Source: an uncultured Bacteroidia bacterium (GTDB lineage: Bacteria > Bacteroidota > Bacteroidia > Bacteroidales > F082). From it: 54,239 nucleotides of DNA. Made by a program: the position numbers and the translations under genes. This document shows, piece by piece, positions 23,279 through 31,786 of this stretch. The stretch lies in NCBI GenBank assembly GCA_902789915.1, contig CADAPW010000001.1, positions 1 to 54,239 on the forward strand, written 5' to 3'. Under the pieces are notes generated by a model, which was not told the DNA's origin, made no database searches, and saw nothing but the letters and a program-made list of their open reading frames with translations. Numbering within the stretch: the stretch's first letter is position 1; the number at the start of each line of letters is the position of its first letter.

Positions 23279-23605
23279 ATGGAAAACGAACAACTTTACG
23301 ACGAGGAATTCATCATTCATTTGACCATCGACGGTACTTCTTTTGAGGAAGTCGAGGTGAAGGTTACCGATCCCAATAAAACCATCCGCGACCAAATCAA
23401 CAGCATCGTGCAAGTATTTGAACTGCCCAAAATGGACAATGGAGGCAACCCTGTACAATATCTCATGGGACAAATCGTGGAAGATGGAGGTGACCCCGAA
23501 ATCCTAGAATTTGAAGACGAGGAAGGTCGCGAACAATGCTTGCTCGACTACAACGTGCAACCTGGCGACCATTTGCATCTCATCTCCGTGCCGATTGCCG
23601 GCTGA
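23279..23605 (+). CDS. Candidate ubiquitin-like (beta-grasp) modifier ending in a free C-terminal glycine
   Basis: 108 aa and acidic. It ends ...GDHLHLISVPIAG, with the stop codon immediately after (ggc 23600-23602, tga 23603-23605). It lies 20 nt upstream of the E2 gene. The strand-helix-strand pattern (IIHLTIDGTSFEEVEVKVTDPNKTIRDQINSIVQVFELPK...) is compatible with a beta-grasp fold. The fold itself is not proven from sequence. Confidence 0.5.
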   Translation: MENEQLYDEEFIIHLTIDGTSFEEVEVKVTDPNKTIRDQINSIVQVFELPKMDNGGNPVQYLMGQIVEDGGDPEILEFEDEEGREQCLLDYNVQPGDHLHLISVPIAG

Positions 23606-23625
23606 CATTCTAAAACCCTCGGACA

Positions 23626-24300
23626 ATGAATGATCTGATTAACAATTTCAACAGAAAAGAACTTTCTGGTCGCGACGCGCGTCTTTGGCAGGAATGGAAA
23701 GAACTTGACACCCTCTGCGACAAACGCAAAGCTGTCAGCTCCAACCCTCGCGAGCCTTCCATTTCCTATATCATCCGTAAAAAGAATGTCATGGGGCTTC
23801 CCGTCGAATATGAGATTTGGTATCGGGTAAAGTCTATCGTAAATGTAGAAGACACTCCGATTCCACGTAAACCCATCTTCGGATATTTGCACAAGATGAG
23901 CATCGTGTTGCCTAACAACTATCCCTCGGCCGACGGCAACCCCATTTTTACCTTCCGCACCGACATCTGGCATCCCAACATCCGCTCGTCAGGGAGCTTC
24001 AAAGGCCATGTCTGCCTTACCATCAAGGAAATGGGCGTTCTGGCTTCGCTAAAAGACCTTGTGCTCCGCGTGGAACGTTACTTGAAATACCAACTCTATC
24101 ACGCTCAAAACACTTATCCCTATCCTGAAGACCAAAATGTGGCCGAATGGGTACGCGAAGAAGGCGAGCCTAACGGATGGACAAGATTCGGTCAAAATGA
24201 CGCATCTACTCCTGATGATGACGACAAGCCTATCCCCACCGCACCAACCCCACAAGATGCACCCCCACAAAACACCACCAAAAAGTCACTGACAATATGA
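23626..24300 (+). CDS. Ubiquitin-conjugating enzyme (E2/UBC-fold) homologue with a canonical HPN motif and active-site Cys
   Basis: LPNNYPSADGNPIFTFRTDIWHPNIRSSGSFKGHVCLTIKEMG reproduces the eukaryotic UBC signature YPxxPPxxxFxTxIxHPNIxxxGxICLxIL. H116-P117-N118 lie at nt 23971-23979 and Cys130 at 24013-24015. The C-terminal tail is Pro/Asp-rich (TPDDDDKPIPTAPTPQDAPPQNTT). Confidence 0.8.
   Translation: MNDLINNFNRKELSGRDARLWQEWKELDTLCDKRKAVSSNPREPSISYIIRKKNVMGLPVEYEIWYRVKSIVNVEDTPIPRKPIFGYLHKMSIVLPNNYPSADGNPIFTFRTDIWHPNIRSSGSFKGHVCLTIKEMGVLASLKDLVLRVERYLKYQLYHAQNTYPYPEDQNVAEWVREEGEPNGWTRFGQNDASTPDDDDKPIPTAPTPQDAPPQNTTKKSLTI
23971..24015 (+). other. E2 active-site segment (HPN ... Cys130)
   Basis: The codons cat ccc aac at 23971-23979 and tgc at 24013-24015 were read directly from the sequence. 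Confidence 0.8.
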
Positions 24301-30575: not shown

Positions 30576-30586
30576 TTTGTCGATTC

Positions 30587-31786
30587 ATGGAAAAGGAGAA
30601 CAAATACGAATGGGGTGAAGGTGTTTTTACTTTGCTTTCTTGGTTTAAGAAAGAAAAGGTGAAAAACGCCAGAATTCTTGTGGCTGGTGCTGGTGCATTG
30701 GGTAATGAAGTGGTGAAAGATTTGGCGTTATTCGGAGTCGGACACATCTTTGTGGTGGATTTTGACAAGATTGAACTATCCAACCTTACCCGATCGGTAT
30801 TGTTCAGAGAAGAAGACGCTTACAGTCATTCATACAAGGCTGACATCGCAGCCAAACGAGCCATGGAAATCAATCCTCAAATCAAGGTTGTGCCTATCGT
30901 TGGAAACCTTTTCTCGGAAGTCGGTTTCGGTATCTATCGTTCGGTTGATGTCGTCATAGGATGTCTCGACAGCCGCATTGCACGCTATCTGCTTAACCGC
31001 CTATGCATGCGCGCCGGCAAGACTTGGATTGACGGTAGTATTGAGAACCTAACTGGTGTGGTGAAAGTGTTTACGCCTGGTATGAATTGTTACGAATGCG
31101 GTTTGTCGCGCGAAGAGTTCAACCACATCATGCTCCGCACGGGATGCGCTGATGTGGTGCGTAACCAAAGTTCGGCGGGCAGGGTGGCCACTACGCCCAT
31201 CAGCGCATCCATTATCGGTGCCATGCAAGTGCAAGAAGCCATGAAAGTTATTCACTCCGATACGGAAAGCGCTGCACAATTCAAGACACTGGAAGGGAAA
31301 ATGTTGCGTTACGAAGGTCTGACCAACAGTACCAACATCTATAAGTTTTCCTCATGGAAAAAAACATGCCCCTCTCACGAACGCTGGGAGCCTGTCATAG
31401 AAGGGAAAAACCTATCAGCCACTATGACCGTAAAGACCTTTCTTGCCAAACTCAAGATATTGCTTGGAGTCAAAACCTTGGAAATCAACATGTGCAACAA
31501 CAAATTTGTGGACAAGATTGTTTCCGACAAGCCAGAAAAAGAATTTGTAGTCATGATTCCAGAATCAAAGCTGAACGAACTCATCAACGAAAATGCCGAA
31601 CTCAAAAAACTTAGTTACATCACTTTGTTCCACAAATCGTTCTACGAGAATATAGACCTCGATTTCCCATACCAGGACCTTACACTTCAACAAATCGGCA
31701 TTCCTTTGTTTGACGTGGTACAAGTCAGCACCGAGAAAGGAGTGTTTTATGTAGAACTCAGTGGTGATGCCGCAACTTTTAAATGA
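30587..31786 (+). CDS. E1-like adenylating/activating enzyme (ThiF/MoeB/HesA superfamily) with an extra C-terminal domain
   Basis: 399 aa. Rossmann loop: ARILVAGAGALGNEV (GxGxxG at nt 30686-30703). Arg-finger motif: DKIELSNLTRSVLF. Mg/ATP Asp region: VVIGCLDSRIARYLLNRLC. Other motifs are GVVKVFTPGMNCYECG (CxxC), crossover-loop Cys187 (LRTGCADV, tgc at 31145-31147), TTPISASIIGAMQVQEAMKVI and C261-P-S-H264. Residues ~275-399 lie outside the adenylation fold. Confidence 0.85.
   Translation: MEKENKYEWGEGVFTLLSWFKKEKVKNARILVAGAGALGNEVVKDLALFGVGHIFVVDFDKIELSNLTRSVLFREEDAYSHSYKADIAAKRAMEINPQIKVVPIVGNLFSEVGFGIYRSVDVVIGCLDSRIARYLLNRLCMRAGKTWIDGSIENLTGVVKVFTPGMNCYECGLSREEFNHIMLRTGCADVVRNQSSAGRVATTPISASIIGAMQVQEAMKVIHSDTESAAQFKTLEGKMLRYEGLTNSTNIYKFSSWKKTCPSHERWEPVIEGKNLSATMTVKTFLAKLKILLGVKTLEINMCNNKFVDKIVSDKPEKEFVVMIPESKLNELINENAELKKLSYITLFHKSFYENIDLDFPYQDLTLQQIGIPLFDVVQVSTEKGVFYVELSGDAATFK

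Follow-up and report, generated by a model that had tools for sequence, protein, structure and literature searches.

A ubiquitin-type conjugation cassette inside a Bacteroidales type VI secretion locus: a candidate envelope module of a distinct T6SS-iii architecture

What might a set of ubiquitin-type conjugation genes be doing inside a bacterial contractile injection system? The question is raised by contig CADAPW010000001.1 of an uncultured Bacteroidia bacterium (Bacteroidales, F082; assembly GCA_902789915.1), whose 54,239 nucleotides were analysed as a whole and are referred to here as the window. A cassette at positions 23279-31786 consists of seven plus-strand open reading frames (ORFs), five for ubiquitin-system proteins, including a ubiquitin-like protein (Ubl), and two for envelope proteins, and it lies within a T6SS-iii type VI secretion system (T6SS) locus. 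Ubl-conjugation systems and T6SS-iii are both of known kinds and are found here in an unprecedented combination. Our answer, put forward with moderate confidence, is that the cassette together with an outer-envelope partner forms a membrane-embedded ubiquitin-type conjugation and deconjugation module, an integral envelope module of a distinct Bacteroidales T6SS-iii architecture beyond GA1-3, which tags cargo, spike or apparatus. The seven genes are the following (TM, transmembrane).

23279..23605, plus strand: Ubl, 108 aa, a ubiquitin homolog with a PIAG-stop end and its C-terminal Gly108 already exposed
23626..24300, plus strand: E2 with a UBC fold, H116-P-N, catalytic Cys130 and a variable low-complexity C-terminal tail
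24297..25352, plus strand: SP3, 351 aa, exported, with a signal peptide, conserved Cys/His residues and no recognised fold
25349..26533, plus strand: SP4, 394 aa; a signal peptide or possibly a lipobox (LISC), a domain in the periplasm, a stretch of coiled coil and, towards the C-terminus, a TM helix (303-321)
26539..28218, plus strand: JAB, a JAMM/MPN+ metallopeptidase in the cytoplasm, followed by a C-terminal domain and preceded by a signal peptide, ~120 aa of periplasmic sequence and a TM helix (145-163)
28197..30575, plus strand: RING protein, 792 aa, with a signal peptide, a periplasmic vWA-like domain (26-368), a TM helix, a cytoplasmic RING-H2 (C414...C454), six more TM helices and, again in the cytoplasm, an FHA-like domain (about 684-792)
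30587..31786, plus strand: E1, 399 aa, ThiF-type, with a Zn site (C168/C171/C261/H264), crossover-loop Cys187 and a conserved C-terminal domain of ~130 aa

The junctions are, in order, a 20-nt gap, two ATGA overlaps, a 5-nt gap, a 22-nt overlap and an 11-nt gap, with a further 7 nt between E1 and the next gene, TssG. Terminator-like sites number 17 against 19.9 expected from shuffled sequence and none falls between cassette genes, and this spacing together with the lack of terminators above chance points to co-transcription of the cassette. A sigma-70 promoter scan was set aside as uninformative for Bacteroidota. The first-pass annotation, made from the sequence alone, had described the seven ORFs with their junctions and had quoted motifs for the E2, the JAB, the E1 and the Ubl C-terminus. 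Coordinates, strand and spacings all match, and the motifs are all present in the window and kept in orthologs. Topology prediction places periplasmic parts in four of the cassette proteins and makes the RING protein the sole polytopic membrane protein of the surrounding island.

The first step is to ask whether the components are what they appear to be. For the Ubl, the single sequence returned nothing useful in Pfam, NCBIfam and PADLOC scans. An exhaustive profile search yielded 144 representatives, and the diverse family alignment based on them (A10) matches ubiquitin in hhalign with 87.9% probability (E=3.3e-6) over 67 columns, corresponding to ubiquitin residues 7-74. When the PDB is searched with the Ubl profile, the best 60 matches are ubiquitin without exception (mono-ubiquitin, E=0.0015). 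The distance from beta5 to the terminal Gly is six residues, the same as in ubiquitin, and the terminus reads ...VPIAG-stop, with Gly as the last residue in 76 of 77 orthologs. Several relatives run on beyond the conserved A-G with unrelated residues, as ubiquitin precursors do. On these profile matches and the terminal Gly, the family is one of ubiquitin homologs, and the early proposal that the 108-aa protein is a Ubl is borne out at the level of homology. The protein has no signal peptide and no neighbouring immunity gene. Foldseek results for its AlphaFold2 (AF2) model were discarded as meaningless, every match having E>1, and profile homology was used instead. A separate alignment of distant Ubl relatives (A9) contains four sequences with a Pfam DUF2604 match (best 1.8e-28) and two with a YukD match; scanning 20 of its members singly did not recover the DUF2604 bearers, and the papers searched do not name this family.

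The E1 matches Pfam ThiF at 2.8e-50. A profile of 23 E1 orthologs scores highest in the PDB against the active adenylation domains of eukaryotic UBA7, SAE2, UBA1, UBA6 and UBA3 (1e-24 to 1e-26), marginally lower against MoeB (5e-23) and far lower against BubCD (2.8e-9), so that the ThiF/MoeB-type E1 called at first reading can be confirmed, with the top scores going to canonical eukaryotic E1s. Its motifs are GAGALG (34), SNLTR (65), CLDSR (126), CYEC (168) and C187. Residues C126, C168, C171, C187, C261 and H264 are kept in all 74 orthologs, and the Zn-site residues (C168, C171, C261, H264) and Cys187 are invariant also in a second, divergent clade described below. The C-terminal ~130 residues are conserved but gave no match; a UFD, not detectable there by sequence, is possible. 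In PADLOC the E1 matches CBASS 'E1-E2' models only, over the adenylation core (residues 22-148).

The E2 reaches 27.4 bits against Pfam UQ_con, where the gathering cutoff is 27. Its signature is NYPSADGNPIFTFRTDIWHPNIRSSGSFKGHVCLTI, with H116 and C130 present in 80 of 80 orthologs and the HPN...C arrangement retained in all 21 divergent-clade loci in which it was compared. The best PDB matches are eukaryotic UBCs, in alignments that span the HPN motif and the catalytic Cys, and the assignment to the UBC type, made initially from the signature, agrees with all of this.

In the JAB protein the JAMM residues E282, H330-x-H332-x7-S340-xx-D343 are invariant among 29 orthologs, and the motif is kept in 16 of 16 divergent-clade loci. 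The JAB profile finds the Rpn11-like deubiquitinase (DUB) of Caldiarchaeum first in the PDB (6fjv, 3.9e-4), followed by CSN5 and Rpn11. The invariant motif, the TM helix and the Rpn11-like matches together support the membrane-anchored JAMM peptidase that had been suggested.

The RING protein is predicted to have residues 26-368 in the periplasm, followed by a TM helix, a Lys/Arg-rich cytoplasmic loop that contains the RING, six more TM helices and a cytoplasmic C-terminal domain. The RING ligands C414, C417, C431, H433, H436, C439, C447 and C454 are invariant in 48 orthologs, and their spacing is of the RING-H2 type except for the last pair, C-x6-C. The closest ortholog has a precomputed Prok-RING_1 match, and the RCHY1 RING in the PDB is weakly matched (E=0.012). 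An AF2 model built with 48 homologs has a pLDDT of 75.5, with the periplasmic domain at 85-93. For that domain Foldseek returned the integrin I-like, CMG2, vWF-A1 and Rpn10 vWA domains, and for the C-terminal domain the FHA domains of DgcB, Ki67, MEK1 and EmbR (TM-scores 0.65-0.70); the top 50 Foldseek matches for the model include no RING structure. Pfam FHA is matched in 14 of the 48 orthologs, always below threshold. A TssN/EccD-like beta-grasp had been considered for the C-terminal cytoplasmic domain and was ruled out by the FHA result. The polytopic protein with a putative RING-H2 and with vWA-like and FHA-like parts, as first described, survives through its invariant ligands and its modelled folds, the RING matches in Pfam being below threshold. 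The catalytic and ligand residues that are invariant in orthologs of these enzymes and retained in the divergent clade suggest that the enzymology is intact and under selection.

The two interleaved envelope genes are less easily named. SP3, which has an N-terminal hydrophobic segment, is present in 78 of 80 loci at ~29% identity, and SP4 in 74 of 80 at ~33%, its layout of signal peptide and C-terminal TM helix being shared with the divergent clade. C201, H206, C266, C278 and C319 of SP3 are invariant and C281 nearly so, a set which may form a periplasmic disulfide or metal site. SP3 had no match in Pfam, NCBIfam or a PDB profile search; SP4 gave nothing useful in Pfam, NCBIfam or PADLOC, and its PDB profile search was empty. 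A match of SP4 residues 234-379 to PADLOC PD-T4-6 (E=4.3e-5) covers an Ala/Gln/Glu-rich coiled-coil stretch and is probably compositional. The proposed outer-envelope partner, with features of an outer-membrane protein (OMP), is encoded directly upstream of the Ubl.

21881..23236, plus strand: CC_OMP, probably an accessory envelope protein, in which a signal peptide and a coiled coil are joined to a C-terminal half rich in beta structure; Pfam gave coiled-coil matches only

The true start of CC_OMP is probably the internal Met at 21980 and not 21881. While the gene precedes the Ubl in the window, its homologs in the divergent clade sit between RING and E1, and 29 of 74 main-clade loci have an extra signal-peptide gene of ~240-276 aa between RING and E1 (for example L008:17515-18255) that is related to the C-terminal half of CC_OMP.

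The second step is to ask how firmly the cassette is tied to the secretion system. The genes on its two sides, and the signalling genes further downstream, are as follows.

8460..17039, plus strand: tail genes ClpV, TssB, TssC, two Hcp, VgrG and a DUF4280 (PAAR-like) effector, assigned by Pfam (VipA weak, 0.02), in the same order in related loci
31794-32672, plus strand: TssG (hhalign 96.8%)
32678-33913, plus strand: TssK (hhalign 91.8%; TIGR03353 1e-9)
33846-34421, plus strand: TssE, weak (hhalign 20.4%; gp25 0.017)
34465-36255, plus strand: TssF (hhalign 79.9%)
38106..39608, plus strand: Ser/Thr kinase with one TM helix (303-321) (Pkinase 1.5e-43), in the same position in L081 and L083
44007..44864, plus strand: PP2C-type Ser/Thr phosphatase at the end of the island (NCBIfam Stp1_PP2C_phos 8.2e-64)

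The baseplate genes were compared by hhalign with the PGAP-annotated locus of Bacteroides finegoldii; single-sequence scans of TssG and TssF in Pfam, NCBIfam and PADLOC gave nothing useful, nor did a TssG profile against the PDB. TssB was found also by tblastn (1.6e-10). Judged by these matches, the T6SS-iii core genes TssB, C, D, E, F, G, H (ClpV), I (VgrG) and K occur together in one locus. The flanking genes named in the first-pass annotation, ClpV, TssBC, Hcp and VgrG upstream and TssG/K/E/F beginning 7 nt downstream, are therefore recovered, TssE by a weak match. The listed TssE ORF has a GTG start and overlaps TssK by 68 nt; orthologs are 167 aa long, and the true start is probably an ATG further downstream.

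A profile search with the E2 identified 97 species-representative genomes, of which all but two are labelled Bacteroidales. The two exceptions, labelled Bacilli and Lachnospiraceae (L010, JAFVUY010000043.1, and L026, CAAFXG010000320.1), are probably mis-binned because their T6SS content is of the Bacteroidales type. Carriers include Prevotellaceae, Muribaculaceae, Bacteroides hominis, Alistipes, Barnesiella, Paraprevotella and Xylanibacter muris. Loci were retrieved for 80 of the 97 genomes, and their gene order is constant: ClpV, TssB, TssC, Hcp, Hcp, VgrG, a variable effector region, Ubl, E2, SP3, SP4, JAB, RING, E1, TssG, TssK, TssE. Tail genes lie upstream in 55 of the 60 loci with >=8 kb of upstream sequence (four of the remaining five have longer effector regions), baseplate genes lie downstream in 71 of 72 loci with sufficient flank, and all five ubiquitin-system genes are present in 72 of 73. 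Median identity is 76% for the Ubl, 79% for the E2 and 74% for the E1, compared with 78% for TssB/TssC; it is 55% for RING, 53% for JAB and about 30% for SP3/SP4.

A metagenome scan with a 4-sequence alignment of distant Ubl relatives was also made. The second, divergent clade comprises 23 metagenomic loci, with identities to the window proteins of 31-37% for the Ubl, about 41% for the E2, about 52% for the E1 and about 28% for RING. VgrG and PAAR lie upstream in this clade, and TssB, TssC and Hcp do so too in L103, while the order of the module, its topologies and all catalytic motifs are kept. As the synteny of cassette and T6SS extends to the divergent clade, the linkage is ancient and not the footprint of one mobile island. 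The linkage is close to obligate. The embedding within a T6SS-iii locus, as first described for the window, holds also in related loci and in the divergent clade. A cassette found as often outside T6SS loci had been named beforehand as evidence against it, and the loci do not bear this out, since just one of the 80 (L031) is without adjacent T6SS genes. The gene immediately before the Ubl in L031 (L031:9040-9612) encodes a small protein that has a TM segment and an FHA domain of the canonical kind (GR...SxxH...NG). A phage origin of the cassette was considered and rejected, as a viral-contig collection contained no relatives of the E2.

The third step concerns what is missing. T6SS-iii uses a membrane complex of TssN/Q/O/P/R, and this complex or part of it was present in all surveyed systems (Bongiovanni et al., 2024; PMC10781749). 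Queries were taken from the B. finegoldii reference locus, namely TssN, two TssO-family proteins, the PKD protein (TssP), TssR and DUF5457. With these, tblastn (E<=0.01) gave no match in the window or in 103 related loci, and in hhalign no cassette or island protein compared with them reached 20% probability while the TssG, TssK and TssF controls were recovered. Thirteen of 14 cassette and accessory envelope proteins had no match in NCBIfam (E<=0.01) and one had an unrelated weak OMP-family match, in a library whose content of TssN/O/R models was unchecked. Assignment of the locus to GA1-3 was rejected, as ThiF and ubiquitin are absent from the GA papers searched and the GA-type reference locus carries TssN/O/P/R instead. 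The cassette adjoins the baseplate genes, as membrane-complex genes do in the reference locus, and with its OMP-like partner it is predicted to supply outer-membrane, periplasmic and inner-membrane parts. The cassette proteins may thus form the envelope module of this T6SS architecture, and with no TssN/O/P/Q/R detected in the locus the arrangement suggests a secretion machine that depends on ubiquitin-like conjugation.

The fourth step turns to the gene fusions of the Ubl. Among the 144 Ubl representatives, 66 are standalone, 33 have the Ubl at the N-terminus of another domain (Ubl-X), 11 are X-Ubl, 8 are di-Ubl, 4 are X-Ubl-X, and 22 are fragments, have other layouts or were not re-detected by the domain profile. 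Most fusion junctions conserve P-[IVL]-[AS]-G-G, the equivalent of the DUB cleavage site. Partners recognised by Pfam in 47 fusions are TIR (13), ADP-ribosylglycohydrolase (2), DUF4280 (2), Macro (1) and STAND NTPase (1). The DUF4280 fusions are DUF4280-Ubl (P0420) and TIR-DUF4280-Ubl (P0379), and P0410 is a TM-degenerate JAB-Ubl protein. Two loci, L006 and L013, have Ubl-X genes close to the cassette itself, within the variable effector region that immediately precedes it. The fusions tie the Ubl physically to T6SS spike or cargo domains and to the peptidase, and they strengthen the hypothesis of the first-pass annotation that a T6SS component or cargo may be tagged, with the JAB reversing the tag. 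Further layouts among P0377, P0381, P0390 and P0404 are Ubl-TIR, Macro-Ubl-TIR, TIR-coiled coil-Ubl-TM and STAND ATPase-Ubl. Also seen are di-Ubl genes in head-to-tail arrangement and a subfamily in which a conserved extension follows the Gly (AG-YACPIP...), both resembling polyubiquitin precursors (P0361, P0373, P0417, P0371; L041:8094-8477).

Homology, motif conservation, topology, synteny and gene fusions are thus the basis of the proposed module, and from them we infer a thioester cascade, its substrates, the physical assembly of a membrane complex and a logic of tagging for loading. In such a scheme the soluble E1 would adenylate Gly108 of the Ubl, hold the Ubl as a thioester on Cys187 and hand it to Cys130 of the E2. 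The RING-H2 loop of the polytopic protein would recruit E2~Ubl at the interface of membrane and baseplate and steer the Ubl onto a lysine of a T6SS cargo, spike or apparatus protein. The TM-anchored Rpn11-like JAMM peptidase would strip the tag, in analogy to Rpn11 removing ubiquitin at the mouth of the proteasome, and would cut linear Ubl-X and poly-Ubl precursors behind the conserved A-G. The envelope would be spanned by SP3, SP4 and the OMP-like protein together with the periplasmic portions of JAB and RING, and signal input could come from the conserved Ser/Thr kinase, the PP2C phosphatase and the FHA-like domain.

Several observations weigh against this scheme and are considered together here. 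The AF2 model of the Ubl is poor (pLDDT 42.6, from 33 near-identical sequences), so its fold is not confirmed by modelling. The single JAB sequence matches Prok-JAB at E=0.056, under the Pfam threshold, and the RING-family Pfam matches, found in up to 27 of 48 orthologs, are all under gathering cutoffs. The FHA-like pocket is without the canonical pThr-binding Arg and Ser, which in a by-eye alignment are replaced by Met717 (Met in 43 of 48 orthologs) and Ala734 (Ala in 48 of 48), with Asn761 kept; this non-canonical pocket weakens the kinase-coupling step. SP3, SP4 and CC_OMP have no recognisable fold. The retrieved loci have flanks of <=10 kb and most come from metagenome-assembled genomes, and L031, the only exception among the 80, has an intact cassette with no adjacent baseplate or other T6SS genes. 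Anti-phage immunity, too, typically employs partners such as TIR, STAND and Macro, and the genomic context is known for a minority of the fusions. Finally, the templates with which TssN/O/P/Q/R were sought, by sequence and by profile, were single sequences from one reference locus, and the absence of these genes applies to the island rather than to whole genomes.

A more specific form of the proposed module, which we regard as tentative and on balance doubtful, is that Ubl conjugation serves as a selection code for cargo and spike. Effectors and PAAR-like spikes would be marked with the Ubl, either by the cascade or as Ubl-AGG-X fusions, recognised at a RING/JAB/SP3/SP4/OMP complex that replaces TssNQOPR, and de-tagged while they are loaded. 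If true, this would be a bacterial counterpart of the ubiquitin/Rpn11/AAA+ proteasome logic, used for export and not for degradation. As an analogy of working only, the Rpn11 of the proteasome lid and the RING-H2 ligases of the endoplasmic reticulum (Hrd1) share with the cassette an MPN+ DUB at the entrance of a translocation machine, an AAA+ unfoldase (here ClpV) and a polytopic RING-H2 protein with a luminal or periplasmic domain. They differ in that no evidence of orthology goes beyond the domain families and in that the translocating machine of the cassette is a contractile injection system.

The rival that survives best, although we consider it unlikely, is that the system is an assembly switch only. 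Here the Ubl would be placed on a structural T6SS subunit (baseplate, sheath or the RING protein) as a regulator on top of threonine phosphorylation, licensing or ending assembly or marking the subunit for recycling by ClpV, with no selection of cargo and no role as the membrane complex. A Hanks-type kinase and a PP2C phosphatase are both found in the window's locus, they share the island with the FHA-fold domain, and the kinase is kept in L081 and L083; the canonical FHA-TM gene stands beside the Ubl in L031, and the cassette abuts TssG/K/E/F. Threonine phosphorylation is established for T6SS-i, where PpkA, PppA and Fha1 control the H1-T6SS of P. aeruginosa and PpkA/TssL/Fha operate in Agrobacterium. 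Those systems resemble the present locus in having a membrane Ser/Thr kinase, a PP2C phosphatase and an FHA fold in the locus and a periplasmic vWA on a signalling membrane protein. They are unlike it in that the vWA and FHA-like domains of the cassette sit on a RING E3, not on a kinase or a soluble Fha, in that the FHA pocket is non-canonical and in that a Ubl cascade is coupled. A literature search returned no threonine-phosphorylation pathway described for T6SS-iii. The pocket without canonical Arg and Ser speaks against a switch of this kind, which would moreover leave unexplained the Ubl-PAAR, Ubl-TIR and other Ubl-X fusions as well as the undetected TssN/O/P/Q/R, that is, a system without a known membrane anchor.

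An improbable alternative is a non-catalytic scaffold, in which the Ubl and the membrane proteins are structural, like YukD/EccD of the type VII secretion system or a TssN beta-grasp that docks TssK, and the E1 and E2 perform a one-off maturation or attachment of the Ubl at a docking hub. A role in baseplate docking has been proposed for the cytoplasmic domain of TssN, which is ubiquitin-like and EccD-like (Bongiovanni et al., 2024; PMC10781749). In the present locus TssN is undetected and the Ubl occurs as a free protein, and a fusion of degenerate JAB and Ubl exists (P0410). The likeness to the TssN-Q-O-P-R complex (PMC10781749) extends to a block of envelope genes beside the baseplate genes, a single polytopic protein of the inner membrane that bears a globular domain in the cytoplasm, several further proteins that are exported or cross the membrane once, a vWA in one component (TssR D2) and a ubiquitin-fold element proposed to dock the baseplate. 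However, no sequence or profile homology between the two is detectable, the cytoplasmic domain of the polytopic cassette protein is FHA-like and not beta-grasp, and the ubiquitin-fold element of the cassette is free, presumably conjugatable, and accompanied by its own E1, E2, E3 and DUB. That the JAMM site is strictly conserved together with those of E1, E2 and RING speaks for a reversible cycle, and the polymorphic Ubl-X fusions with their DUB-type junction argue for processing.

It is also conceivable, but in our judgement highly improbable, that a passenger defence or conflict system, Bil-like or of the 'tri-ligase' type, has settled in T6SS islands as an immune or selfish module that acts on phages or on T6SS toxins from outside and has no part in secretion. 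In its favour, the Ubl is fused to domains typical of immune systems (TIR, STAND, Macro), the E1 matches PADLOC CBASS E1-E2 models over its adenylation core only, RING-containing Ubl operons have been predicted in the literature as conflict or defence systems, and the order Ubl-E2-(...)-JAB-(...)-E1 parallels BilABCD. Against this stand the fixed position between effector region and baseplate in ~100 species and in the divergent clade (about 28-52% identity), unlike mobile defence islands, and a conservation of Ubl, E2 and E1 (74-79%) that equals that of the sheath proteins. No PADLOC match was obtained for Ubl, E2, JAB or RING and there are no viral-contig relatives, and membrane anchoring, periplasmic domains and DUF4280-Ubl fusions do not fit such a system.

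The known operons of this class can be compared directly. Prokaryotic E1-E2-RING-JAB-Ubl ('tri-ligase') operons were reportedly predicted by Burroughs, Iyer and Aravind in 2011, which predates the discovery of T6SS-iii. The ubiquitin operon of Caldiarchaeum subterraneum has been reconstituted (PMC5654768, PMC6043591). Both kinds share with the cassette a Gly-ending Ubl, a single-domain ThiF-type E1, an HPN UBC E2, a small RING (a putative one in the cassette) and an Rpn11-like JAMM DUB. Unlike them, the RING and DUB of the cassette are integral membrane proteins with periplasmic domains (vWA), its RING protein adds six TM helices and an FHA-like domain, two envelope genes are interleaved, and the whole is locked in a T6SS locus. 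BilABCD (Type I/II) has the same Ubl-E2-DUB-E1 order, a conserved Ubl Gly with extensions that in some are removed by the JAB DUB, and eukaryote-like enzymes. Bil systems have no E3, an E1 with tandem IAD+AAD and a CYS domain, soluble proteins and defence contexts with capH/capP (PMC10557695), whereas the cassette has a RING E3, two envelope genes, a single-domain E1 of 399 aa, a classical UBC E2 and a T6SS context. PADLOC (E<=0.1) gave neither a Bil-type nor any other match for Ubl, E2, JAB and RING. The likeness to Bil operons drawn by the first-pass annotation is one of gene order, and the profiles, the E1 architecture, the presence of an E3 and the context all speak against membership. The vWA-MoxR 'FtsH ternary' conflict systems (Kaur et al., 2020; PMC7159879) combine E1, E2, a RING-type E3, JAB and Ubl with vWA, and their JAB is predicted to free the Ubl from multidomain fusions; they carry MoxR, FtsH, EAD1 adaptors and caspase-like effectors and no T6SS, whereas the cassette is without MoxR or FtsH and stands in a secretion context.

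The weakest alternative, that the Ubl is itself exported as an effector or inter-bacterial toxin like BfUbb of B. fragilis (Bacteroides secretes a ubiquitin homolog as a toxin) and that the enzymes and peptidase only mature it, can draw on a gene placed directly behind the variable effector/immunity block and on precursor-like C-terminal extensions and di-Ubl genes, but it is very remote for a protein with 76% median identity, among the most conserved of the locus and unlike polymorphic effectors, with no signal peptide and no adjacent immunity gene, in the company of a full E1-E2-RING cascade that would be superfluous for simple maturation.

The cassette bears on the function of such operons and on T6SS biology. 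Earlier work reads prokaryotic E1/E2/RING/JAB/Ubl operons, predicted since 2011, as selfish or antiviral and without an assigned cellular process, and the present lineage ties this operon class to a concrete machine that can be assayed (Hcp secretion, contact-dependent killing). The Bacteroidales T6SS literature recognises three architectures and one membrane complex, and a full-text search found no Bacteroidales T6SS architecture described beyond GA1-3. Loci of this type are widely distributed among gut and rumen Bacteroidales, Prevotellaceae and Muribaculaceae included; having no detectable TssN/O/P/Q/R, they represent either a new way of anchoring or gating a T6SS or an overlooked regulatory layer. 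The full-text search likewise found no E1/E2/Ubl system linked to a T6SS, although the 2011 tri-ligase survey may list Bacteroidetes examples; the first-pass annotation had remarked that no such system was known to have been tied experimentally to one. Were conjugation to select or load cargo, this would be a new principle of secretion substrate recognition and a functional parallel to eukaryotic ubiquitin-proteasome and endoplasmic-reticulum-associated degradation logic, relevant to the evolution of ubiquitin signalling. Among the carriers are Bacteroides hominis, with a complete genome (L030), and the PMUR strain of Xylanibacter muris (L027), the latter probably cultured because it is a named strain, and these make the system tractable.

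The remaining features belong to the island that surrounds the cassette.

7898..8521, plus strand: NusG/UpxY-like gene (Pfam NusG 3.3e-9), also before ClpV in L047
36261-37103, between TssF and the glucosaminidase gene: lipase-like gene with weak lipase/alpha-beta-hydrolase matches; its L081 counterpart is named 'Phospholipase-like'
37123..38100, plus strand: glucosaminidase-LysM peptidoglycan hydrolase (Pfam Glucosaminidase 2e-34, LysM 1e-16), in the same position in L081 and L083

The island (about 7.9-45 kb) has a GC content of 42-47% compared with 50-55% in both flanks, and an IS4-family transposase lies at its left edge (6540-7685; NF033592, 1.2e-74). The GC contrast and the transposase suggest that the island was horizontally acquired. 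The NusG/UpxY-like gene stands at the head of a same-strand gene string of ~37 kb and may encode a dedicated antiterminator for a long operon. Also upstream of the cassette are a Tle1-like effector and a DUF2931 protein, and downstream the lipase-like gene may encode an enzyme that remodels the envelope or else a conserved effector. A WG-repeat protein, an OMP and a repeat protein are encoded between the kinase and the PP2C phosphatase. At 20119-21951 a protein with a type IX secretion system C-terminal sorting domain (Por_Secre_tail) and InlB-like/PKD repeats is encoded, and a similar gene precedes the Ubl in the divergent clade (L085-L102).

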